This document shows positions 4,119 through 30,777 of a stretch of DNA of 32,000 nucleotides, piece by piece. The notes beneath the pieces were generated by a model. It had not been told where the DNA came from. It was given only the letters and a program-made list of their open reading frames with translations, and made no database searches. Source of the DNA: Thermodesulfobacteriota bacterium (GTDB lineage: Bacteria; Desulfobacterota; WTBG01; JAGOGO01); NCBI GenBank assembly GCA_026625185.1, contig CP113000.1, positions 120,001 through 152,000 of the forward strand. Reading direction: 5' to 3'. A program made the translations under genes and the position numbers. Position 1 is the first letter of the stretch. Each line of letters begins with the position of its first letter.

Positions 4119-4652
4119 TCAAGAAATCAATTTATTCGCTTTTAAACGGCGCACCACTGCGGGAACCATTGCTGAGCCTAAACATCCGAAAATCACCGTC
4201 AGGGTTGAGTCCAAAATAGCCTTTTGCCAAATTATTCCCGTTTCCATTCCCATAAACCTTTCAATAAGAAAAAACGCTGCAAACCGGGTGAAGGATGCGA
4301 TGCCCCCCACAATGATACACCCCACATAGCTTGAGGTGAGGCGGGGATAAAAAGCCGCTCCCAGGTCAACAACAAGACCCGGACAGATGAATTTTAAAAT
4401 AAGCAAAGGCCCTTTGCCCAATCCCATCAAGGTGCTGAGCACGCCGGCGATAAGCCCAACCAGGGATGCAGCCCCCATTTTAGGCACACATCCACGCCCT
4501 AACAAAATGAAAAACATAACAAAAAACATAGCATGGCCGGGCACATTAAGTTTTAGACGGAGAAGTACCCGGGCAAGAATGATAAAGGTGGCACAGAATC
4601 CCAGGTAGAGAGCTTCGCGCAGAGTAAATTTCGCCTTAGTTAACTTGTTCAC
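4119..4652 (-). CDS. Small polytopic membrane protein; candidate substrate-capture (S) component of the adjacent ECF-type transporter
   Basis: 177 aa, about 5-6 hydrophobic helices, GTG start with AAGGA 10 nt upstream. Lies 6 nt after the preceding gene and is the last gene of the TBDR1-ECF operon. The S-component role is inferred from size, topology and context only. Confidence 0.6.
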   Translation of the reverse strand: MNKLTKAKFTLREALYLGFCATFIILARVLLRLKLNVPGHAMFFVMFFILLGRGCVPKMGAASLVGLIAGVLSTLMGLGKGPLLILKFICPGLVVDLGAAFYPRLTSSYVGCIIVGGIASFTRFAAFFLIERFMGMETGIIWQKAILDSTLTVIFGCLGSAMVPAVVRRLKANKLIS

Positions 4653-4658
4653 AATAAA

Positions 4659-5384
4659 CTAATCCTTATTCTTCGGCTTTTTCTTCTCTGGTGATCTCCA
4701 AAGCGTTCCTTCTTTTTGCACAAAAAATACGATTTCCTTATGATGAAGGTTAGGACGAATCCAATTCTGGGTATCAATAAGCTCATAGTCAGGCAGGGCC
4801 TCACCCAAAAGATTTATCACCCGGCTGATGGCAGTCTGGCTGAGAATATCCCCCACGCTCTTCACACCTTTGACCTCGCGGATGCCCTTTAATTCAATAA
4901 AACGCCCATCATTGCCGGTACTTCTGAGGCCAACACCAGCCATCGCGCCGATAAACCCCTGCCCGGTTCCTCCTCCCAACCAGATATACACACCGAGCCG
5001 ATCTGCTATCTCCCGTGCTTCCTCCATGGTCAACACTTCTTTCTGCGCCCGCATGCCAAACGTGCGCAGGTCTTCAGGCACAGCATCTTTTTCCGAAACA
5101 CAGAGGCCGGGGTCAGCCCCTTCATGAAAGTTTTGCAGTAAAAAGCCCTGAGCACACTCAGCTATTTTGTGCAAATCCCCGTTAGTAGGGATTCCCTCGA
5201 TGCAGGCGCTGCTATTATGCGAGGTATAGGGAATATCAGGGTGAACCAGAAGCTGATGCCTCGTCACACTGGTATTGCTCACCAGTCCTTTTTTCGTCAG
5301 TTCTTCGGCCAGCATACGGGAAAGTCGGCCCGTCCCGATGCTTTCCATATTATCGGTGTCATCAATGCAGATAAACACACTCAT
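4659..5384 (-). CDS. Hypothetical cytoplasmic protein (N-terminal FICIDDTDN motif, Gly-rich GGGTGQGFIGAMAGVG)
   Basis: 241-aa ORF with a strong SD (AAGGAGG). No signal peptide or TM segments. The IDDTD N-terminus is reminiscent of the TiaS/DUF1743-type N-terminal domain, but that is a weak from-memory resemblance. Confidence 0.6.
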   Translation of the reverse strand: MSVFICIDDTDNMESIGTGRLSRMLAEELTKKGLVSNTSVTRHQLLVHPDIPYTSHNSSACIEGIPTNGDLHKIAECAQGFLLQNFHEGADPGLCVSEKDAVPEDLRTFGMRAQKEVLTMEEAREIADRLGVYIWLGGGTGQGFIGAMAGVGLRSTGNDGRFIELKGIREVKGVKSVGDILSQTAISRVINLLGEALPDYELIDTQNWIRPNLHHKEIVFFVQKEGTLWRSPEKKKPKNKD

Positions 5385-5408
5385 CTTAAAACCTCCTTAC
5401 AAAACGGC

Positions 5409-6092
5409 TTATTGAACCAAATGATTATTTTCCACTCTCCGGGGAACCTGTCCACCAAATCCCCTCGCCTCTGCTGAAAGAGCAGATTCGTTTGCGGTTT
5501 TTATTGCCCGAATAATCAGGGGAATCATAATACACGAAAAGATATCTTGCCAGTTAAAAGGATTAAAGCACTGGCGAAGCGCAACACGCGCACCCCGGAG
5601 ACGCTGTATGAGGGCTATTTCGTGAAACTCCCGGGCAAAATACGGAACAAACCGGAAGCTGGTAAGAATAGCAAAAGCGATCGAAAAAGGCAAAATTCTC
5701 CGCAGACCCCGCATCAACTGGGAACTCGGGGTGGTTCGCAGAAAGATCGCGCCGGGAAGAAAAAATAAAAGAATTTGAATTGAGATACGCATTCCAATAA
5801 AGAACCCGTCAACACCCTGACGAATCATATACAACCCCACCACAATGGCCATCTGAATCAGGAAAAAACGAATGTCCTGGAAAAAGTCAATTGGTTTTAA
5901 ACGAGAAAGATAATAGGTAGCTCCATTGAGCAGCAACAATACACCAAGCGCCCACGGATCACGCGAGATAATTGCCCCTATACTCAGAAAAAACCAAAGC
6001 GTCAGCTTCCCTGCCGCCGGCAGGTGATGCATTGCTGAATCCGCTGAACGAAACTGATACGCGTGTCCAATGCCGCCGCTTTTACGATGCAT
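5409..6092 (-). CDS. ecfT: ECF transporter transmembrane (T) component, EcfT/CbiQ family
   Basis: Polytopic protein with the two characteristic Ala-Arg-Gly coupling-helix motifs (IQRLRGARV and SAEARGFG). Start moved to the ATG at 6092, which overlaps the ATPase stop by 11 nt. The 65 aa upstream in the ORF track lie inside the ATPase gene. Confidence 0.8.
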   Translation of the reverse strand: MHRKSGGIGHAYQFRSADSAMHHLPAAGKLTLWFFLSIGAIISRDPWALGVLLLLNGATYYLSRLKPIDFFQDIRFFLIQMAIVVGLYMIRQGVDGFFIGMRISIQILLFFLPGAIFLRTTPSSQLMRGLRRILPFSIAFAILTSFRFVPYFAREFHEIALIQRLRGARVALRQCFNPFNWQDIFSCIMIPLIIRAIKTANESALSAEARGFGGQVPRRVENNHLVQ

Positions 6093-7458
6093 AAAGTTTT
6101 CCTTTTTCCACGACCACGCGGCGGTCCGCCCAATTTTGAAGCGGCAACGAATCATGTGAAGCAATAAGAACGGTGGTTCCCCTGACACGCCGAAGTTCGG
6201 ACAGGATATCCAGTATCCGCTTTCGCAGCAGAAAATCCAGGCCAGAGAAAGGCTCATCAAACAGCAAAACTTCCGGATGGATGGCAATTGCCGAGGCCAG
6301 CGCGACCCGGTGCTGCTCGCCGAAGCTGAGTGTCAAAGGAGACTGCTCCGCAAAAAGGGGAATGTCACAAAGAGCAAGTGCTTCAGCGACGCGTTCATTA
6401 ATTTCTGGTTGAGAGAGTTTCATCCGCGTTAAGGAAAACGCTACTTCTGCAAAGACGGTATCCTCAAAAAGCTGGCGTTGGGGATTCTGGAACAAAAATC
6501 CGACCTTTCCCAGCAGGCGTTCCGGCCAGGGAGGGTTCATGCCGCCAATCCGAATGCTTCCCGCTTCAGGGGTTACAAACCCGACCAGACACCGGAGAAA
6601 AGTTGATTTACCCGCTCCATTCAGCCCAAAGAGGTGAATCAGCTCCGCCTGATAAACCTTGACCTGCGCGTCCTGAAAAATCAAAGGGTTCTTGGAAGCA
6701 GGTCCCGCGACACAGAGGCCCTCAACCACAATAGCGGTTTTTTTTTCTGAGCTCGAAGCGCTTTCCTCCTTTTGCCGGTCATACGAGCTTTGAGACGGCG
6801 ATGGGATATTAACTTCTTGATGGTGTTGGCCGTTTTTCAGAAAAATAAAACGGTTGGCGATATTCTCATAGGGATTTAAATCATGGTCAGTAACAAGCAG
6901 GGCCTGCCCTTGCTGTTTGAGGCTTTTCAGAACCGCCATCAGGCGTTCTTTTCCGGGGGCATCCAGTTGGCAGGTTGGTTCATCCAGAAGTAATAAACCC
7001 GGCTTCATCGAGAGCACTGAGGCAATGGTTAAACGATGCTGCTCCCCTGCGGAAAGTTCCTCTACATTTCGTTTCTCGAACCCTGACAAGCCCACCGCTT
7101 CTAAAGACTCATGCACCCTGCCGGCTATCTGATCGGCGGGCAAACCAAGATTTTCCGGTCCAAACGCCACTTCATCTTCAACCGTGGTGCAAAGGATCTG
7201 AGATTCCGCGTTCTGAAAAACCATGCCGACAGCGACATTACTGCTGCTGTCGGCAATTCGGATAGTTCCTTCGGTCGTCCCGCCCCGCAAAAGCCCCTGG
7301 ATGGCCAGAAGAAGCGTGGTCTTGCCGCACCCGGAGGGGCCGCTTAAGCATACGCATTCGCCGGCAGCAACGGAAAACGAGATTTTTTCAGAAAATACCG
7401 GCGCTTCTTTTTCCGGATAGGTATAAAAAAAATTGCTGACCTCCAGAATCGGCGTCAT
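6082..7458 (-). CDS. Fused double ABC ATPase (EcfA-EcfA'/CbiO-type)
   Basis: Two complete nucleotide-binding domains. Walker A: GPSGCGKTT and GLNGAGKST. Signatures: LSAGEQHRL and LSFGEQHRV. Walker B: LLLDEP and LLFDEP. Confidence 0.9.
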   Translation of the reverse strand: MTPILEVSNFFYTYPEKEAPVFSEKISFSVAAGECVCLSGPSGCGKTTLLLAIQGLLRGGTTEGTIRIADSSSNVAVGMVFQNAESQILCTTVEDEVAFGPENLGLPADQIAGRVHESLEAVGLSGFEKRNVEELSAGEQHRLTIASVLSMKPGLLLLDEPTCQLDAPGKERLMAVLKSLKQQGQALLVTDHDLNPYENIANRFIFLKNGQHHQEVNIPSPSQSSYDRQKEESASSSEKKTAIVVEGLCVAGPASKNPLIFQDAQVKVYQAELIHLFGLNGAGKSTFLRCLVGFVTPEAGSIRIGGMNPPWPERLLGKVGFLFQNPQRQLFEDTVFAEVAFSLTRMKLSQPEINERVAEALALCDIPLFAEQSPLTLSFGEQHRVALASAIAIHPEVLLFDEPFSGLDFLLRKRILDILSELRRVRGTTVLIASHDSLPLQNWADRRVVVEKGKLYAS

Positions 7459-7485
7459 CCTTTTAAATCAACAACCTCTTTCTTT

Positions 7486-9513
7486 CTAAAAGGGAATTTC
7501 CATCCCTCCATAGACAAATCGTCCTGCTTGAGGAAAAGCATAACTTTCTTCATACTTCTCATCGCAGACATTATCAACTCCCGCGTATAAATGCAATCTC
7601 CGGTTAAATAATGCTTGATCCACTTTCATGTTAAGGATGGTGAAATTGCCTAATTTCTTCTTTTGCAGAGGGGTGTTTTTGGAATAAAAATATTGGTCAG
7701 CCACCCGCGTCAAATTCACGTTGGCGGACAATCCGAAGTCAAACAAATAATTTCCTTCAGCCGTGAACTTATGTATCGGCCGGTATTGCAACTCGTCTTT
7801 TTCGCTTCCCGTGGACCGGTCTCTGGTGTGAAGGAAGGTATAGCCCAGGCGCACCATTAGGTTTTTGAAAAACCGGTTTTCCCCCATAATTTCAATGCCC
7901 TCAAAAAGGTATTTATCATTGTTTTGGTACCGGTCGACACTCGACGAAATAGCAACCTTTTCAATGTAATTTTTAACATCAGTATAGAATCCCGTCAGAC
8001 CGACTTTGGTTTGCCAGGGAAGGTTCTGCTCGATCCCGGCTTCATAATTATACGAGGTCTCGGTGCTCAAGCCAGGATTGCCGCTCTGCTCGTCGTAAAG
8101 CTGGCTGATAGAGGGGAACCGCGTCTTCCGGGCCGCCGAACCTTTTATTCTGGTGTCTTTGGTTAGGTCATAATAAAGGCCGGCAAGAAAATTCCAGTCG
8201 TGGTCGTTGCCGCCGCCGTCCTTTTCAAGCCAGTTGTGCCGGTATCCCAGCACCAGACCGGCGTGGTCGAACAACGTGACGTTGTACTCCAGAACTGCTG
8301 AAGAGACATCAAGGTCTTTGTCATCATCGAAATAGCGAAACGCATATTTTTTGGGTTTGGTTTTGGGAATCTCGACATCACGGATTTTCCCCTCGGAATC
8401 CCAGGATTCTCTCCGTCCGTTAAAGCCAAGGGTGAAAAATCCCCATGACTCCAAATCGTATTTTACCTGCATATTTGCACCGGTAATCCTGGAGTCGTCT
8501 CTCTCGTGGTAAGTTCCCTTGATCAGGGGGTCATCCATGGTTCGGTAGTGATTGTCATCATACCCCTTTTTATTTTCGCGCAGTTGATTGACGTACACCC
8601 AGGACCTCAGCTCCAATGGCCCGGGGACATCATAGGTGATCGCCACATGACCTGAAATTCCTTCCAAATCATCCACCCGTTCATATTTTGACTTGCTGGC
8701 AAAGTCATCAGTGCCGTTAATGGTGCTGGGGGGTTTGCCGAATTCACTTCGATAATATTGAAAGACCATGCCGATATCGAGATCATCACGGGGTGAATAG
8801 CCCCCCTGGGCGAAATAGTTCTGTCTTCTTCTAAAACTGTTTTCCCTCAAACCCCCGTTCTCTTGGTCGGTGGGGGTAAAATCATCAGCCAGCCTGAACC
8901 CGTTGGTATTGTACGCGCTGCTGCTCAGAAAAAAATTCATTTTATCGGAAGAACCGGATACAGTACCCCGCACAAGGGAAGTTTCTTCCTCTCCCCCTTC
9001 GCCGCTTAGGGTCCCATGAATGCCCTTCCGGCTCCCCTTTTTGGTAACAATGTTGATAACCCCGCCCAGATCTCCTTCTCCGTAAAGCAGGGAACTGTTT
9101 CCCCCCATCATTTTTATCTTGGCAATATTTTCCACCGGTATCAGGGTGGGATCGTACTGGCCGTCGACCGTAGAGTTAAGCGGGATGCCGTCAAGCAGGA
9201 TAAGGGTGTGACGGGGCTTGAACCCCCGGTAATCTACCCGGGGAACGCCCTCGCCTCCGGTTCTGATATTTACCCCGGGAAGCAACTGCAGCGCTTCATC
9301 AATTGTTCTGGCGTCCCTATTTTGTATGTCCTCAGCAGTGACTTCCCGGGTTGTTCCGACTGATTCTACTGCCGGTTTTTCGGCAGAAACTACAATTTCC
9401 CCTAAGGTATAGGTTCCGGTAGCATCATCAGTCTGACCAAAGGTTACTTGAGCCCCACTCAAAATTAATTCATATGCTAACAAACTTACCATAAAAAATA
9501 ACCATCGTCTCAT
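7486..9513 (-). CDS. TonB-dependent outer-membrane receptor (TBDR1)
   Basis: Signal peptide, TonB-box-like TLGEIVVSA, plug motifs (IDEALQLLPGVNI, LILLDGIPLN, GGVINIVTKKG). Long beta-rich barrel ending in an aromatic residue (...GGMEIPF). Strong SD GGAGGAG. Confidence 0.9.
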   Translation of the reverse strand: MRRWLFFMVSLLAYELILSGAQVTFGQTDDATGTYTLGEIVVSAEKPAVESVGTTREVTAEDIQNRDARTIDEALQLLPGVNIRTGGEGVPRVDYRGFKPRHTLILLDGIPLNSTVDGQYDPTLIPVENIAKIKMMGGNSSLLYGEGDLGGVINIVTKKGSRKGIHGTLSGEGGEEETSLVRGTVSGSSDKMNFFLSSSAYNTNGFRLADDFTPTDQENGGLRENSFRRRQNYFAQGGYSPRDDLDIGMVFQYYRSEFGKPPSTINGTDDFASKSKYERVDDLEGISGHVAITYDVPGPLELRSWVYVNQLRENKKGYDDNHYRTMDDPLIKGTYHERDDSRITGANMQVKYDLESWGFFTLGFNGRRESWDSEGKIRDVEIPKTKPKKYAFRYFDDDKDLDVSSAVLEYNVTLFDHAGLVLGYRHNWLEKDGGGNDHDWNFLAGLYYDLTKDTRIKGSAARKTRFPSISQLYDEQSGNPGLSTETSYNYEAGIEQNLPWQTKVGLTGFYTDVKNYIEKVAISSSVDRYQNNDKYLFEGIEIMGENRFFKNLMVRLGYTFLHTRDRSTGSEKDELQYRPIHKFTAEGNYLFDFGLSANVNLTRVADQYFYSKNTPLQKKKLGNFTILNMKVDQALFNRRLHLYAGVDNVCDEKYEESYAFPQAGRFVYGGMEIPF

Positions 9514-9557
9514 AAACTCTCCTCCAAGAAATAATTTGGTATAATCAGTATTAATTT

Positions 9558-9569
9558 GTAATTATTTGT
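9558..9569. promoter_or_regulatory. Copy 1 of shared 12-mer ACAAATAATTAC (reads GTAATTATTTGT on the + strand)
   Basis: Perfect inverted partner of 9648-9659, 78 nt away. The same 12-mer recurs at 30756-30767 in the TBDR2 operon promoter region. Confidence 0.5.
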
Positions 9570-9587
9570 TGTTAAAATGAATTTTAT

Positions 9588-9616
9588 TTTTTAGCAGATA
9601 TGTTTTTCCTGGTCAA
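9588..9616 (-). promoter_or_regulatory. Candidate promoter for the TBDR1-ECF operon
   Basis: Minus-strand TTGACC (9616-9611), 17-nt spacer, TAAAAA (9593-9588). The -35 context TTTCTTGACCAGG resembles TTTCTTGACAAGG at the TBDR2 operon promoter. Confidence 0.3.
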
Positions 9617-9644
9617 GAAAAAAATAAGTAAAATTATCAATTAA

Positions 9645-9673
9645 TTGACAAATAATTACTTATAATTTAAAAT
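9645..9673 (+). promoter_or_regulatory. Candidate sigma70 promoter for tupB
   Basis: TTGACA (9645-9650), 17-nt spacer, TAAAAT (9668-9673), 100 nt upstream of the tupB ATG. The -35 overlaps 12-mer copy 2. Confidence 0.4.
9648..9659. promoter_or_regulatory. Copy 2 of shared 12-mer ACAAATAATTAC
   Basis: Exact match to 30756-30767 and exact reverse complement of 9558-9569. A degenerate copy (ACAATTATTTCC) lies at 9677-9688. Confidence 0.5.
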
Positions 9674-11829: not shown

Positions 11830-12216
11830 ATGTCAAGAAAAAAAATACCCATAAATAAACCGACTCCGAAGCATCCATCCCAAGGAAAACAGGAGCGTTA
11901 CATCCAGCCCTCCATTTTGATGGGCCTTTTCTTCAAGTCCTCTTACGGATATGAATTGATTCATAATATTCAAAGCTTTGGTTTTGTGGAGGGGCAGGCG
12001 CCGCCGGGAATGATCTATCGTCATTTACGTCAGATGGAAGAAGATGGGTTAGTGTCTTCGAAATGGAAGACCGAGGGGACCGGCCCGGCAAAACGCGTCT
12101 ATTGGATAACCCCTGAAGGCAAAGAGGTACTCGGGGTCTGGATCGAATATATGAAAGGACAGGCTAAAAATTTAACTACCTTCATTAATCACTATCAGGC
12201 AGTACAAAAAAAATAA
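11830..12216 (+). CDS. PadR-family transcriptional regulator
   Basis: Winged-helix PadR pattern: SYGYELIHNI ... PGMIYRHLRQMEEDGLVSSKW ... KRVYWITPEGKEVL. SD AAGGA. Confidence 0.85.
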   Translation: MSRKKIPINKPTPKHPSQGKQERYIQPSILMGLFFKSSYGYELIHNIQSFGFVEGQAPPGMIYRHLRQMEEDGLVSSKWKTEGTGPAKRVYWITPEGKEVLGVWIEYMKGQAKNLTTFINHYQAVQKK

Positions 12217-16906: not shown

Positions 16907-17752
16907 TCAATTATTTTTTCCAACTGCTTCGGGGATAGCGGTGGGGATAAAAAGTGGTTGACCGAACTTATCTTTTCCAAACTCCCGGATTATCTTCTGG
17001 CCTTCGGTTGAGGTCAGCCAGCCAATGTAGGCCATAGCATAAACATATTTAACCTGAGGGAACTTGGCGGGATTAACCGCAATCACACCGTACGGGTTGT
17101 TTAAAACCGGGTCACCTTGGCAGAGAATTTTTAATCCGATTTTTCCTCCATAGGCCAAGTAAGTTCCCCGGTCTGATAAAGCATACGCCTGTTTCTCGTT
17201 CGCCATCGTCAAAACAGGTCCCATGCCTTGGCCGGCTTCCATATACCATTTCCCTTGGGGCTTGATTCCCGCCTTTTCCCAGATCTTTAATTCTTTTTTA
17301 TGAGTTCCCGAATCGTCTCCCCGGGATATAAAAGGCGCGTGGGCAAGTGCGATCTTCTTCAAGGCTTCCTTAGCATCAGTTGTACCTTTGATCTTGGCTG
17401 GATCCTTTTCCGGCCCAATGATAATAAAATCATTGTACATAACGAACCGCCGGTTAACACCCGAGCCATTCGCGACAAACTTATCTTCTGCCTCACGAGC
17501 GTGTACCAGAACCACATCAACATCTCCCCGTGCGCCCAGCTCCAAAGCCTTTCCGGTTCCCACGGAAATCACGTCTACCTTAATATTCATCATCTTTTCA
17601 AAGGGCGGATTAAGTGACTGAAGGATCCCGGTATCCTCAGTGCTGGTAGTGGTGGCTAATCGAAGCCGCAGTTCTTCAGCACGAATAATTCCTGTGGTAC
17701 TAATTACGAAAAGCACCAAAACCATAAAAACTAATCCCCATTTTTTTCCCAT
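16907..17752 (-). CDS. tupA: Tungstate ABC transporter substrate-binding protein TupA (canonical)
   Basis: Signal peptide, TupA signature LATTTSTEDTGIL, VLVHA, SRGDDSGTHKKELKIW. SD AAGGAGG. Confidence 0.85.
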   Translation of the reverse strand: MGKKWGLVFMVLVLFVISTTGIIRAEELRLRLATTTSTEDTGILQSLNPPFEKMMNIKVDVISVGTGKALELGARGDVDVVLVHAREAEDKFVANGSGVNRRFVMYNDFIIIGPEKDPAKIKGTTDAKEALKKIALAHAPFISRGDDSGTHKKELKIWEKAGIKPQGKWYMEAGQGMGPVLTMANEKQAYALSDRGTYLAYGGKIGLKILCQGDPVLNNPYGVIAVNPAKFPQVKYVYAMAYIGWLTSTEGQKIIREFGKDKFGQPLFIPTAIPEAVGKNN

Positions 17753-17853
17753 AGAACCTCCTTGGTTTGATAAAAAGTTTGATATAAACTATCCTCTTTT
17801 ACCATATCACCCTACCTCACGTAAAACACGTGCACAGGTGACTCTAAAATTAT

Positions 17854-18684
17854 CTACTCCCCAAAACATTGGGAAGCTGAAAAGTACAAGGGCTCACCAA
17901 ACTCTTCCCTTCCAAAGGTAGCAATGATCTTTTGCCCTTGTGCACCCCTCAAAAATTCAACAAATTTTTTTGCCGGCTCATAGTTCGCTTGAGGATACAT
18001 TGTCGGGTTAGTTGTGAGTGCATGGTATCGATTGATAAGCATCGAGTCACCTTCGAAAAGGACCGCAAGGGTTAAGGCGTGGTTTTCCTTGCGCGCCACA
18101 ATATAGGTTGACCGATCCACCATAAAATAGCCGTTTTCATTCGCTGCCTTCTGAAGCGAAGCCATCATAAAATCTTTTGAGGTTCGATACCAGCTACCGG
18201 CGGGTTTTATTCCCGTTTTTTCCCAGATACCCAGTTCCTTTTTGTGAGTGCCGGAGTTATCTCCGCGGGTAATGAAGACTGCCTCTTTCTCAGCGATCTT
18301 CTTATAGGCACAGAGGACATCCTTACACTCCTTGATTGCCGCTGGATCTTCCTTGGGCCCCAGAACAACAAAATCATTGCCGCCAATATACGTCCGGTTA
18401 AGCGCCCAGCCTTCTTCTACGCCCTTTGCCTCTTCAGCCGGAGCATGCACCATAATGACATCAACCGTTCCGCTCTTAAGCATCTGTAACGACTCGCCTG
18501 AACCCGCCTTGGTCACGTTCAGTTCACAAGGAATCTCCTTTTTAAACTCGGCAAAAAGGGCATCCACCAACCCTAACTCATAGGGCGAACCAGTAGCCAA
18601 ACGTAAGGTGGTTGCCAAAAGAGAAGAAGGCACTACTAAAACCATCGGTAAAACAAAAAGTAAAAATATTCGGACCAATCTCAT
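17854..18684 (-). CDS. TupA-family periplasmic binding protein paralog lacking the TTTS motif
   Basis: Collinear with TupA1 (IMVHAP, TRGDNSGTHKKELGIWEK, GIKP.G.WY). The N-terminal anion-binding motif is LATGSPYELGLVDAL instead of ATTTSTEDTGIL. Signal peptide and SD GAGGAG present. Confidence 0.8.
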   Translation of the reverse strand: MRLVRIFLLFVLPMVLVVPSSLLATTLRLATGSPYELGLVDALFAEFKKEIPCELNVTKAGSGESLQMLKSGTVDVIMVHAPAEEAKGVEEGWALNRTYIGGNDFVVLGPKEDPAAIKECKDVLCAYKKIAEKEAVFITRGDNSGTHKKELGIWEKTGIKPAGSWYRTSKDFMMASLQKAANENGYFMVDRSTYIVARKENHALTLAVLFEGDSMLINRYHALTTNPTMYPQANYEPAKKFVEFLRGAQGQKIIATFGREEFGEPLYFSASQCFGE

Positions 18685-19541: not shown

Positions 19542-20303
19542 TCACTCAAGTCGGTAGATTATCGGCACGCGCACTTCGGCCCTAACCGGCGGCTTGGGGA
19601 AGGGTGCTACTGCCTCTACCGTTTTAACCACATTATCATCCAGCACGTCAAACCCTGAACTCTTGGCGATCTTTATAGTGGTAGCGTTTCCATTTTCCAA
19701 AATTATGAACTCTATGATCACTTTCCCTTGCCAACCCATTCGCTGCGCCCTTGCTGGGTAGGTAATATTTTCTTGGATGATTTTTTTGATATAAGCAAAA
19801 TGCTCACTCAGATACTTTTTTCTAAGTGAATCGGCCGAAATCCCTCCCGTACCATTACCGGCCCCCCCCACCAAACCTCCCCCTCCTCCAAGGCCGGTGC
19901 CGCAAGCAGACTGGTCTCCGGTACCGGGAAGTGTTTCCGTCAGCGGTTGAGTCTTCGGAACCTCGGCTGAAGCTATCGGTACCGGACCTTGCTCCTCAAC
20001 GGGGGTTACAATTTTAGGCTCCGAACATTCATCTACCTTCTTTTCCAGTTGCCTAATCTTTTGCACTATTTTTGGGTTTTCTATTGGTTTTGGTTTATCC
20101 GGTTCCGGCATTTTGGGGGCGAGCAAAACTTTTTCATCTTTCGGAGGCCCGGGAGAATTAATGACCGATTCCAGAATGCTTAAATCAATAATCACCGGTT
20201 TAGTATTCATCAAGGCGCTGGTCGTTCCGATAACCCCGGCCAAAACAATAACCACGGTATGGATAATTAAAGAAACTAAAAACCCGCACGCCTGGCGCTT
20301 CAT
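19542..20303 (-). CDS. tonB: Energy transducer TonB
   Basis: N-terminal TM anchor, Pro/Lys-rich spacer (PKMPEPDKPKPIENPK), Gly-rich linker. C-terminal TonB domain: AQRMGWQGKVIIEFIILENG...SSGFDVLD...PFPKPP. Confidence 0.85.
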   Translation of the reverse strand: MKRQACGFLVSLIIHTVVIVLAGVIGTTSALMNTKPVIIDLSILESVINSPGPPKDEKVLLAPKMPEPDKPKPIENPKIVQKIRQLEKKVDECSEPKIVTPVEEQGPVPIASAEVPKTQPLTETLPGTGDQSACGTGLGGGGGLVGGAGNGTGGISADSLRKKYLSEHFAYIKKIIQENITYPARAQRMGWQGKVIIEFIILENGNATTIKIAKSSGFDVLDDNVVKTVEAVAPFPKPPVRAEVRVPIIYRLE

Positions 20304-20680
20304 CGCTTAATCTCGGTTTGAAGGCTTACCTTGGTAAATCCTAAAGTTTTTACTAAATCAAGCACATCCACAAATACCTGGAGCGCAATTTCCCGATCCG
20401 CCTTGATAAGAACAGGATTGTTTTTATCCAACTTCTGCATTGAGTCTTGGAGGCTTTCTATGGTCATGGGCCGGGAATTGAAATAGATCAGCCCGTTTTT
20501 ATCTATCTCAACGGTCTGAATCTTCAGGGTCATTTCCTGCTTATGCGCTGCCCGGGGAAGGTCTATTGGAATAACGCCTGTGGCAATAAAGGTGGAGGTG
20601 GTAAGCACAATCGTTAAAAGCACCAGCATCACATCAACCAACGGGATTACGTTGATATAATCAAATTCCTTTTCTTCCAT
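20300..20680 (-). CDS. exbD: Biopolymer transport protein ExbD/TolR
   Basis: 126 aa, [20 protein letters not shown] segment plus periplasmic domain. 4-nt overlap with tonB. Confidence 0.85.
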
Positions 20681-21095
20681 GCCTTATCTCCCATTTCATC
20701 ATGATCACCTTCACCCGCCTCAACAGCACGTTATAAAGAACCACCGACGGTATGGCCACCAGTAACCCCACAGCCGTCGCCTTTAAGGCCAGAGCCAGGC
20801 CAATCATGATTTTATTGGTATCCATAAAGCCTTCTTTGCCCATGGTGTAAAAGGTCAACATGATGCCCAGGACGGTTCCCAACAACCCGATATACGGAGC
20901 ATTGCTTCCCACGGTGGCGATAATATGAAGTTTCGCGGTGAGTTTAAGTTCCAGGGTCTTTAAATCAGAAAAATCTCTTACCTTGATGTGCCGGTACACC
21001 AGAAACCGCTCAATGGCGATACCCACCGATAACACACTCATAAAAACTAAAACTCCGATTATTCCGTAATCAACGATTGCTTTAAGCCAGTCCAT
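20661..21095 (-). CDS. exbB: MotA/TolQ/ExbB proton-channel protein (short form)
   Basis: 144 aa, three TM segments, [19 protein letters not shown] motif. 20-nt overlap with exbD. Confidence 0.85.
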
Positions 21096-30745: not shown

Positions 30746-30777
30746 GAAAATAATTACAAATAATTACAAATAATATT
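30746..30777. repeat. Three tandem 10-bp-phased AAATAATTAC-type repeats abutting the -35, including the exact 12-mer ACAAATAATTAC (30756-30767)
   Basis: GAAAATAATTAC / AAATAATTAC / AAATAATATT. The 12-mer is identical to 9648-9659 and the reverse complement of 9558-9569. Confidence 0.6.

Follow-up and report, generated by a model that had tools for sequence, protein, structure and literature searches.

How a TonB-dependent outer-membrane receptor can be served by an inner-membrane importer of the ECF type, without a periplasmic binding protein, and which ligand such a pair would carry, are the questions raised by five genes in the window (the whole stretch of 32,000 nucleotides analysed, from a Thermodesulfobacteriota bacterium). 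The original prediction had described an operon headed by the receptor TBDR1, followed after 27 nt by a fused EcfA-EcfA' ATPase, with EcfT overlapping by 11 nt. The five minus-strand open reading frames and the gaps between them (27, -11, 24 and 6 nt, in order) agreed with this description. The genes of this cassette, and the TonB genes located outside it, were the following:

7486-9513, minus strand: TBDR1, TonB-dependent outer-membrane receptor, 675 aa (Pfam Plug and barrel)
6082-7458, minus strand: fused EcfA-EcfA' ATPase, 458 aa (Pfam ABC_tran, NCBIfam ECF/CbiO models)
5409-6092, minus strand: EcfT (T component), 227 aa from the ATG at 6092 (Pfam PF02361 CbiQ)
4659-5384, minus strand: free-standing soluble protein resembling the TiaS kinase domain (TCKD), 241 aa (PF22641, fold)
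4119-4652, minus strand: putative S component, 177 aa, six predicted transmembrane helices (AF2 model, fold matches)
19542-21095, minus strand: TonB, ExbD and ExbB, in the TBDR2 array, outside the cassette (PF03544, PF02472, PF01618)

No terminator or promoter signal above background was found inside the five-gene operon. A binding-protein gene was also missing from the operon, as had been claimed, and two TupA-type binding proteins were encoded elsewhere in the window (16907-18684). The five-gene arrangement is far beyond chance, and the same set was present at 72 genome loci spread over several lineages.

TonB-dependent receptors are recognised by a Plug domain, a 22-strand barrel, a TonB box and a C-terminal aromatic residue. 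TBDR1 fulfilled these criteria: the Plug (PF07715, 82 bits) and barrel (PF00593, 106 bits) domains both scored above their cut-offs, and the protein had a signal peptide, ended in Phe and carried, near residue 37, the TonB-box-like LGEIVVSA. Only generic TBDR models were matched in NCBIfam, all far under their cut-offs; the top row was a B12 receptor model (TIGR01779, 133 bits vs. a cut-off of 599.7), with which siderophore models tied, NF007926 reached 122 bits vs. 836, and an assignment to BtuB was rejected. PDB sequence matches were confined to the plug domain. TBDR1 was 29% identical to TBDR2 of the same window, and its homologues flanking ECF genes shared 36-56% identity. The TonB-ExbD-ExbB set of the TBDR2 array is the likely energiser of TBDR1; a TonB gene adjoined the cassette in 14 related loci.

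The importer fulfilled the gene-content and fold criteria of a group I ECF transporter: S, T and A genes in one operon (gaps of -11, 24 and 6 nt), two EcfA-type ABC ATPase domains, a T component of the CbiQ/EcfT family with two coupling-helix motifs, and a small membrane protein with a six-helix S fold. In the case of the ATPase, two ABC_tran stretches were detected by Pfam (181 bits), and the Walker A, signature, Walker B-Glu and H-loop motifs were read from the translation in both halves. The leading NCBIfam models were TIGR04521 (315.1, cut-off 330), TIGR04520 (314.7, cut-off 315) and TIGR01166 cbiO (303.4, cut-off 211.8); since these scores sum both halves, each half alone falls under the equivalog cut-offs. 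EcfT matched PF02361 with 58 bits (cut-off 25), and its N-terminus, starting from the ATG at 6092 that creates the 11-nt overlap with the ATPase stop, aligned with those of its homologues. In an alignment with 32 homologues, Q163, G167, A207, A209 and R210 were invariant and R166 and A168 nearly so, both coupling-helix Arg-Gly motifs (LRGA and ARG) being present and conserved.

The 177-aa protein had been proposed only as a candidate S component, to be compared with known S folds, and the comparison supported the proposal. Its six predicted transmembrane helices are followed by a C-terminal amphipathic helix, and its AF2 model (pLDDT 87, pTM 0.84) retrieved ECF S components at all of ranks 1-10 in Foldseek. 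In a wide VIA search the best match was YkoE (5edl_A, Z 17.1, 164 aa, 3.1 A), and the 13 rows that followed were likewise all S components; CbiM (Z 9.8-11.2), BtuM (8.3) and CbrT (6fnp_E, 7.4) ranked below YkoE, ThiT, PanT, BioY and FolT. Membership of the YkoE family PF09819 (ABC_cobalt) was rejected (21.5 bits vs. a cut-off of 25.2, residues 41-102 only), and none of the NCBIfam models matched. As judged from the model, the protein is the S component of a new family, related to YkoE in fold but separate from it; this family comprised 348 representative clusters. The predicted EcfT-S complex gave weak support only (ipSAE 0.33 vs. 0.00 in the best of 3 controls), with at least 82% of contacts agreeing between runs and a partner pLDDT of at least 69. 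Of 80 solved complexes, 58 passed the mark used for complex prediction, as did 2 of 110 mismatched pairs; only 7 of the 80, and both passing mismatches, did so at 0.60 or under, the range in which the EcfT-S score falls. As ECF holo-complexes have already been solved, the docking score may also reflect structures familiar to the predictor.

The 241-aa protein, under-weighted in the original prediction, has no membrane segment. It matched PF22641 (TiaS_TCKD) with 30.1 bits (cut-off 27), and its profile found PDB 3u02 at 4e-15 and TiaS at 7e-11. Its model (pLDDT 83) retrieved TiaS in Foldseek (5xob, E 3e-9) and in VIA (3amt_A, Z 20.2, 151 aa, 2.2 A). D8, D9, T10, D11, N12, G17, T18 and G19 were invariant in an alignment of 40 homologues, and D8, D9, T10, D11 and T18 aligned with the same residues of TiaS; the criterion for a TiaS TCKD domain (PF22641 score, DDTD and Thr18 positions) was thereby fulfilled. 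Residues from about 160 to 241 form a small C-terminal beta-rich domain in the model, to which no known fold was assigned. TiaS itself was rejected as an identification (NF040849, 48.9 vs. a cut-off of 600), only the TCKD part (residues 1-153) being matched. By alignment and modelled fold, the protein is a free-standing copy of the TiaS TCKD kinase domain, working with a TiaS-type ATP site yet not a TiaS; its action is inferred. Weak fold echoes of the pterin pyrophosphokinase HPPK were also seen in the model (Z 6-6.7, within noise).

The receptor and the ECF genes had been expected to be conserved together, and a survey of related loci was in agreement. Fifty-one of the 72 related cassettes had enough flanking sequence for the receptor to be counted, and a TBDR1-type receptor stood beside the ECF genes on the same strand in 50 of them (43 directly upstream and 7 at 1.7-3.1 kb downstream; 1 had none). 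In a few Geobacteraceae relatives a TupA-like gene lay between receptor and ATPase. With the S fold and the EcfT motifs, this co-conservation upheld the view of a TBDR heading a dedicated, binding-protein-free ECF importer whose S component comes last. The pairing had been called unusual, and it is uncommon, but it is not without precedents: in Gram-negative bacteria such receptors were predicted to accompany NikMNQO (Rodionov et al. 2006, cited as ref. 81 in PMC11247825), and the BtuB gene is co-localised with the solitary S-type cobalamin carrier BtuM (PMC6072759).

For the substrate, a corrinoid, Ni/Co or a W/Mo complex had been left as options, and the regulatory sequences and gene neighbourhoods favoured the last of these. 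An exact 12-mer was found at two places in the window:

9547-9673, unstranded: divergent control region between the TBDR1 operon and tupB, with an inverted pair of the exact 12-mer ACAAATAATTAC
30756-30767, plus strand: third, exactly matching copy of the 12-mer, upstream of the TBDR2 / TonB-ExbBD / TupA array

The copies in the control region (9558-9569 on the minus strand and 9648-9659 on the plus strand) each overlapped a promoter-like site (9575-9547, minus; 9645-9673, plus, 11 of 12), and the 12-mer marks the promoters of TBDR1, tupB and TBDR2. The three copies were the only exact ones in the 3.3-Mb genome, and at up to 2 mismatches 13 were found in the window, vs. 3.8 +/- 2.1 by shuffling. 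The third copy places the TBDR2 array and the TBDR1-ECF operon in one candidate regulon. Genes for TupA, TupB, MoSto-like or HTH_17+PBP_like (TunR-type) proteins adjoined 21 of the 72 related cassettes; about 70% of the related loci had no W/Mo gene within 8 kb. ModE-type palindromes were over-represented in the related loci (20 matches vs. 3.0 in shuffles), and in Geobacter-type loci at least 10 of them preceded the receptor gene by no more than 320 nt. Eight genomes had the TCKD gene without the S gene, and in 5 of these it was directly beside a MoSto-like gene, with a tupABC set nearby in 3 and tup-like genes nearby in the other 2. Distant S-like proteins adjoined mod-like operons and MoSto-like pairs (L079, L081, L084) or, in the Clostridia-like locus L083, lay near a PBP_like regulator. 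The genome encoded five AOR-type tungstoenzymes; no ModA match was found in it, and its only TupA genes were those of this window.

On account of the rare shared 12-mer, the W/Mo neighbours, the ModE-type boxes and the pairing of TCKD with MoSto-like and tupABC genes in the absence of the importer, a tungsten or molybdenum species is the most likely substrate, although this rests on association and operators only, without binding or transport data. The ligand, whose identity is inferred, would most likely be a trace-level oxyanion or a complexed or thiolated W/Mo species. Since tupB, tupC and two TupA genes are already present in the genome, a second route for tungsten calls for an explanation, for instance another chemical species or Mo vs. 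W. These observations are best read as a two-membrane W/Mo uptake route composed of TBDR1, the ECF importer and the TCKD enzyme, to which a probability of about 0.55 was given, the direction and order of transport, the ligand and the kinase action being inferred. TBDR1, energised by TonB-ExbBD, would bring the scarce ligand to the periplasm; the dedicated group I ECF transporter (new S family, EcfT and fused A-A') would move it across the inner membrane without a binding protein; and in the cytoplasm the TCKD protein would act ATP-dependently on what has been imported, and may trap or activate it or hand it to a MoSto-like store or to cofactor synthesis. That the cassette is the first ECF transporter for a group-6 metal, with its own TBDR and an ATP-using TiaS-kinase-domain enzyme serving a MoSto-like store or cofactor synthesis, can only be put forward tentatively.

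The same genes could instead import an organic micronutrient needed with W/Mo enzymes (a pterin-type precursor or other vitamin-like compound), which the TCKD kinase would phosphorylate and so trap. The nearest fold is a counterpoint to a W/Mo substrate: YkoE handles a thiamine precursor, characterised S components bind organic vitamins or Ni/Co cations (all the non-metal ones organic vitamins), and we know of no S component for an oxyanion. Salvage kinases trap other ECF substrates by phosphorylation, the TCKD of TiaS activates the carbonyl oxygen of a heterocycle, the HPPK echoes point the same way within their noise, and a ligand that is too bulky or too rare to enter through porins would fit uptake by a TBDR. 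Even so, this explanation is unlikely, if still credible: the genome encodes MoaC, MoaE and MoeA and is therefore not a pterin auxotroph, the TCKD gene is paired with MoSto and tupABC where the importer is missing, the operators are of the metal-sensing ModE type, and the adjacent regulators are TunR-like with oxyanion-binding PBP_like domains. Moreover, neither the window nor 13 related loci yielded a riboswitch of any vitamin class; no Rfam family reached its gathering score in the window, and the sole match in the 13 loci was a c-di-GMP-I riboswitch (L055). The lack of a B12 or Moco riboswitch in these same sequences argues against a corrinoid too, and hence bears on a CbiMNQO/NikMNQO- or CbrT-like importer of Ni/Co or corrinoid fed by a BtuB- or Ni-type TBDR. 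Such an importer would be consistent with the CbiQ and CbiO models being the best family matches for T and A, with the receptors predicted beside NikMNQO (cited as ref. 81 in PMC11247825), with the B12 receptor model topping the NCBIfam rows of TBDR1, and with the tetrapyrrole-methylase-fold proteins and ChlI/VWA pair also encoded in the window. It is nevertheless very improbable, as the B12-receptor score was far short of its cut-off and tied with siderophore models, and the CbiM, BtuM and CbrT folds ranked low. CbrT was rejected on the missing cobalamin riboswitch and its Z of only 7.4, and no Ni, Co or B12 genes recurred in the 72 neighbourhoods. CbiM/NikM proteins have a hallmark N-terminal Met-His metal-binding start; the 177-aa protein starts with VNKLTKAKF, no CbiN/NikN-like gene was present in the operon, and with a Z of 9.8-11.2 this identification was rejected as well.

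A further explanation concerns the parts and not the ligand: the functional core may be a solitary S carrier with a trapping TCKD enzyme, EcfAA'-T and the receptor being optional or serving another S component, just as BtuM and solitary BioY are carriers that need no ECF module. In every phylum-sample genome with a strong S match, S and TCKD stayed together. The pair also persisted in L083, where EcfA/T is missing but DUF2149 and an ExbB-like gene are present, and in L086, where the order is TBDR-S-TCKD. In the close relative L078 only TCKD and S remained after the loss of the receptor, ATPase and EcfT genes; the cassette is therefore dispensable, which also counts against the two-membrane W/Mo route. 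No other partner of the S component is as constant as the TCKD protein, which has a W/Mo link of its own. As an account of the whole cassette, however, this seems quite doubtful: the order EcfAA'-EcfT-S was invariant and tightly spaced in all 63 of the 72 loci with mapped EcfAA' and S, the genome had one copy each of S and TCKD, and the component that relocates or drops out was the TCKD gene, not the ECF genes.

A two-membrane W/Mo route remains the preferred reading, and the cassette would then combine features of several known systems. YkoEDC of Bacillus subtilis, also of group I, has a similar layout, a dedicated operon with S, T and a duplicated (fused) ATPase. Structurally, the 177-aa protein is closest to YkoE (Z 17.1), and PF09819 is the only Pfam family that it touches, but sequence identity is 16% and the PF09819 score lies below the cut-off; YkoEDC belongs to a monoderm, without an outer-membrane receptor and with a thiamine riboswitch, whereas here a TBDR and a TCKD-like enzyme are encoded, operators and neighbours are of the W/Mo type, and a riboswitch is lacking. 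NikMNQO/CbiMNQO share group I membership, a CbiQ-type T and a CbiO-type A; they are trace-metal importers of diderms and a precedent for a TBDR paired with a binding-protein-free ECF importer. Unlike them, the S unit here has no Met-His start, no extra helix and no CbiN/NikN, and the cassette has a fused heterodimer ATPase, an accessory TCKD protein and a W/Mo context. BtuB-BtuM likewise joins a TBDR to an S-fold protein of the inner membrane with no periplasmic binding protein involved, and the close-family S protein has an invariant Cys reminiscent of the Cys ligand of BtuM; BtuM, however, has no ECF module, is under B12 control and matched in fold only at Z 8.3, in contrast to the full EcfAA'-T and absent B12 signal found here. 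TupABC/ModABC probably have the same physiological purpose, and share neighbourhoods and regulon with the cassette (the 12-mer at tupB here, ModE boxes and TunR-like regulators in relatives), but they are type I ABC importers with a periplasmic binding protein, no TBDR and no homology to the S and T described here. Archaeal TiaS, the tRNA(Ile2) agmatidine synthetase (3amt, 3au7, 4rvz), shares the TCKD fold over its N-terminal 150-160 residues, the DDTD motif and the Thr18 position with the 241-aa protein. It has about 420 residues, and its tRNA-binding part consists of ferredoxin-like, OB and zinc-ribbon domains, of which the OB and zinc ribbon are absent here; the 241-aa protein, unlike TiaS, is bacterial and encoded in transporter and metal-storage operons.

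In anaerobes, formate dehydrogenases, aldehyde oxidoreductases and benzoyl-CoA reductases are limited by tungsten and molybdenum, two metals that are in short supply or chemically masked where sediments are sulfidic. To our knowledge, textbook W/Mo importers are all binding-protein-dependent ABC systems, none with active outer-membrane transport, and a part in W/Mo supply has not been described for any of the protein families of the cassette. The cassette is a concrete, testable candidate for active outer-membrane W/Mo uptake, and since it has cultured carriers, namely strain NaphS2, Desulfatiglans anilini and Pseudodesulfovibrio karagichevae, genetics is feasible. It offers a new substrate class for ECF transporters together with a new S-component family, and for the first time gives a functional context to the many bacterial "TiaS-like" proteins, which are wrongly labelled as tRNA enzymes by annotation pipelines. 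If the proposed route is true, it would be a third, binding-protein-independent principle of W/Mo uptake beside ModABC/WtpABC/TupABC, and would give the TCKD fold a new biochemical role.

Five head-to-tail open reading frames, separated by 27, -11, 24 and 6 nt, formed a minus-strand cassette running from 9513 to 4119 in an uncultured bacterium of Desulfobacterota type, whose 3.3-Mb genome is a single contig:

9513-7486, minus strand: TBDR1, TonB-dependent receptor (Plug plus barrel) with a signal peptide, the TonB-box-like stretch LGEIVVSA and Phe as its last residue
7458-6082, minus strand: EcfAA', fused ATPase of 458 aa with two complete ABC ATPase domains (best family models, ECF/CbiO ATPases)
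6092-5409, minus strand, ATG at 6092: EcfT, a CbiQ/EcfT protein
5384-4659, minus strand: TCKD protein, soluble, 241 aa, with a TiaS_TCKD domain
4652-4119, minus strand: S, polytopic, 177 aa, merely grazing PF09819 (YkoE family; 21.5 bits vs. a cut-off of 25.2)

The original prediction of a receptor heading an ECF-type importer operon was confirmed in every detail, including the 11-nt overlap of the EcfT and ATPase genes, which was given by the ATG at 6092, where the alignment with 31 homologues begins. A scan of the operon detected no internal terminators or promoters above background. Both coupling-helix Arg-Gly motifs were present in EcfT and were invariant or nearly so in 32 homologues.

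The 177-aa protein had been proposed as the S component, a proposal which would have failed had its fold been different; its AlphaFold2 model, built from an alignment of 33 homologues (pLDDT 87, pTM 0.84; six transmembrane helices and a C-terminal amphipathic helix), matched S components first. The best ten Foldseek matches in the PDB were ECF S components only: YkoE (5edl, TM 0.69), followed by ThiT, RibU and PanT, with BioY and FolT lower in the list. An independent all-against-representatives search also placed 5edl_A at the top (Z 17.1, 164 aa, 3.1 Å), followed by 13 more S components ahead of any other fold; CbiM (Z 9.8-11.2), BtuM (8.3) and CbrT (7.4) were among the lower-ranked matches. 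Docking of S onto EcfT was only weakly supported (ipSAE 0.33 vs. 0.00 for the best of three controls), with at least 82% of contacts agreeing between runs and a partner pLDDT of at least 69. Among 80 solved complexes 58 passed the mark used, and among 110 mismatched pairs 2 did; a pass at 0.60 or lower was seen for just 7 of the 80 and for both of the mismatches that passed. As ECF complexes have already been solved, even this weak support may stem from the predictor having memorised them. Some proteins of 359-408 aa carried an S-like domain at the C-terminus and an N-terminal membrane domain with sub-threshold similarity to CbiQ (17.5-24 bits vs. a cut-off of 25), one of them starting with a CbiQ-like DPRLK. 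The probability against the EcfT profile (hhalign) was 14% for one N-terminal half and 0.4% for another; EcfT-S fusions were thus not established as Rosetta-stone evidence and were left out of the docking evidence.

Scanning 185,579 species genomes for the pattern of the S alignment yielded 72 related loci. These came from Geobacteraceae, Desulfuromonadales, Desulfatiglandales, Desulfobacterales, Syntrophales, strain NaphS2, Anaeromyxobacter, Desulfobaculum, Pseudodesulfovibrio and a “Poribacteria”-labelled MAG; the cassette was also present on a SURF_5 Abyssobacteria contig. After the window proteins were mapped and the loci classified, 51 had a complete ECF module and enough flanking sequence to be counted. 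A TBDR1-type gene (36-56% identity) was directly upstream on the same strand in 43 of them and 1.7-3.1 kb downstream, also on the same strand, in 7, and was absent in one. The receptor and the ECF genes were therefore co-conserved (50/51), as the original prediction required. TBDR1 was only 29% identical to TBDR2, the second receptor of the window, indicating that the cassette receptor belongs to a specific lineage. Searches of NCBIfam and of PDB sequences returned nothing beyond generic TonB-dependent receptor matches below threshold and did not reveal its substrate.

Several features of individual loci were also recorded. In 19 Geobacter-type loci (e.g. L047:2412-3602), a roughly 396-aa protein carrying fibronectin type III domains was encoded immediately upstream of the receptor, often in two copies. 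In a Desulfuromonadales MAG, a c-di-GMP-I riboswitch (L055:8871-8945, 57 bits) was located directly downstream of the S gene. In a close relative, MAG MFD00709.bin.2.91 (L078:7141-9716; about 92% nucleotide identity to the window), the stretch from the tupB promoter to the TCKD gene contained no TBDR1, EcfAA' or EcfT gene. The TCKD frame was fragmented there, and S stopped after residue 61 and gave way to 1.5 kb of unrelated DNA; tupB, the MoSto-like gene, padR and tupC were all intact. This state reflects either cassette decay or indel errors of long-read assembly.

The 241-aa protein belonged to a large family (6214 clusters at E ≤ 1e-3). Over residues 1-152, a profile built from 40 members matched a short TiaS-like protein from Pyrococcus (PDB 3u02, 4e-15) and the Archaeoglobus TiaS (7e-11), and the model (pLDDT 83) superposed on TiaS (Z 20.2, 151 aa, 2.2 Å; Foldseek E 3e-9). 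D8, D9, T10, D11, N12, G17, T18 and G19 were invariant in the family alignment and aligned with the DDTD motif and Thr18 of TiaS, which in that enzyme are the site for ATP/Mg and the threonine that becomes autophosphorylated. The protein had none of the tRNA-binding domains of TiaS, and its equivalog score was 48.9 (cut-off 600); it is therefore no TiaS, although its ATP site is of the TiaS type. Residues 160-241 formed a small beta-rich domain to which no fold was assigned. The gene was mobile within the cassette: it preceded that of the ATPase in 11 loci, stood between T and S in 7 and followed S in 8, and in L076 it was on the opposite strand. Among 251 sampled genomes of the phylum, S-like matches were found in 7 and TCKD in 16, and every genome with a strong S match had TCKD within a few kb of S. 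Seven longer TCKD-bearing proteins were found, none with TCKD fused to S or MoSto; the partners were a regulator plus TonB-dependent receptor (1), a Peripla_BP_2 protein (1), a glycosyltransferase (1) and DAO/BFD oxidoreductases (4). In the last four (P0329-P0332, all different, metagenomic, 782-836 aa), the TCKD-like domain was attached to a FAD oxidoreductase of DAO type that also had a [2Fe-2S] domain resembling BFD, a second and unexplained context for the bacterial TCKD fold.

The ligand of the cassette was inferred to be a tungsten or molybdenum species, with a probability of roughly 0.55. Six independent lines pointed to it: the window, a 12-mer, the related loci, ModE boxes, TCKD without S and distant S-like proteins. 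In the window, tupB was divergent from TBDR1 and was followed by a MoSto-like gene, padR and tupC; two TupA genes, FmdE, TonB-ExbBD and TBDR2 were encoded farther along. The 12-mer ACAAATAATTAC occurred in three exact copies in the window and nowhere else in the 3.3-Mb genome: two (9558-9569, minus strand; 9648-9659, plus strand) formed an inverted pair over the promoter-like sites of TBDR1 and tupB, and the third (30756-30767, plus strand) was upstream of the TBDR2 array. The PadR-family regulator (11830-12216), located inside the split tup locus, is a candidate for binding this operator. A Desulfobacteraceae MAG (L021:2914-3258) encoded a 62%-identical PadR homologue immediately ahead of its receptor. 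The genome had five AOR-family tungstoenzyme genes; its only two TupA-like genes were those of the window and no ModA (TIGR01256) was matched in the whole genome, so all of its recognisable W/Mo uptake genes lay within 32 kb.

In the related loci, 20 ModE palindromes were found vs. 3.0 in shuffles (E. coli-type palindrome with up to 5/22 mismatches, consensus from PMC545781), at least 10 of them in Geobacter-type loci, no more than 320 nt ahead of the receptor gene. Genes for TupA, TupB, MoSto-like or HTH_17+PBP_like (TunR-type) proteins were present within 8 kb in 21 of the 72 loci. Four loci (L009:4878-5753, L019, L055 and L026) had a degenerate gene for a TupA-like binding protein between the receptor and the ECF ATPase; that of L009 (NF041772, 79 bits vs. 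a cut-off of 400) overlapped the ATPase start by 4 nt. Such genes could encode a periplasmic shuttle for an ECF transporter, an arrangement that would have no precedent. Of 8 sampled genomes with TCKD but without S, 5 carried the TCKD gene directly beside a MoSto-like gene (L090-L094, from genomes G135, G146, G111, G203 and G234; about 280 nt apart, same strand). A tupABC set adjoined the pair in 2-3 of these 5 (including L092 and L093), the others having tup-like genes nearby; TCKD and the MoSto-like protein seem to work as a pair.

Distant S-like proteins (E 1e-10 to 1e-20) were found at a MoSto-like pair (L079:7001-10671) and at the head of mod-like operons (L081:1542-4282 and L084:7001-12218, the latter also with two MoSto-like genes). 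In these three loci the proteins were 369-408 aa long, with the S-like domain following the membrane domain; the adjoining genes were mod-like SBP/permease/ATPase operons or two MoSto-like genes, and one example of this type came from a Bacteroidota-like (T9SS) contig. Another followed a PBP_like regulator on a Clostridia-like contig (L083:3081-11199), where no EcfA or EcfT genes were found; a functional core consisting of S and the TCKD protein alone was considered distinctly unlikely. Neighbours in L083, whose contig encoded one protein with a CW_binding_2 domain, were an fn3 wall protein, a 604-aa unknown, an ExbB-like protein, DUF2149 and a TCKD homologue.

An organic cofactor as the substrate remains possible, if doubtful, but no cobalamin, Moco or other riboswitch was found with Rfam in the window (at the gathering threshold) or in 13 related loci, the only exception being the c-di-GMP-I riboswitch downstream of S in L055, and pterin biosynthesis genes were present in the genome. 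Salvage of a pterin (Moco/Wco) was specifically weakened by the MoaC, MoaE and MoeA encoded there. Nickel, cobalt or a corrinoid was regarded as highly improbable, since the S protein lacked CbiM/NikM features and the window and the 13 related loci lacked a cobalamin riboswitch.

In the most likely mechanism for import of a W/Mo species, which adds an inferred ligand, transport direction and enzyme reaction to an observed parts list and its conservation, TBDR1, driven by the TonB-ExbBD set of the window, would concentrate the species in the periplasm, where S would capture it. The extracytoplasmic loops PGH (39-40) and G-K-GP (79-82) of S were conserved and D96 in helix 4 was invariant; all three are candidate ligands. 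The fused ATPase, acting via EcfT, would topple S and release the species inside, and the TCKD protein would then spend ATP on it or on its acceptor.

The architecture is that of a group I ECF importer, nearest to YkoEDC, which has a fused ATPase and, in YkoE, the closest fold. The pairing of a TonB-dependent receptor with an ECF importer is uncommon, yet precedented: such receptors were predicted beside NikMNQO (ref. 81, as cited in PMC11247825), and BtuB and the S-type BtuM are co-localised (PMC6072759). The Geotalea daltonii paper (PMC13119186) was rejected as a description of the cassette, as it concerns CbiMNQO, a different system. No published cassette, W/Mo ECF transporter or bacterial TCKD in metal uptake was found with incomplete full-text coverage, which makes this absence weak evidence of novelty. 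What is new is the S family, for which there is no Pfam or NCBIfam model, its obligatory TCKD partner and the tungsten/molybdenum wiring.
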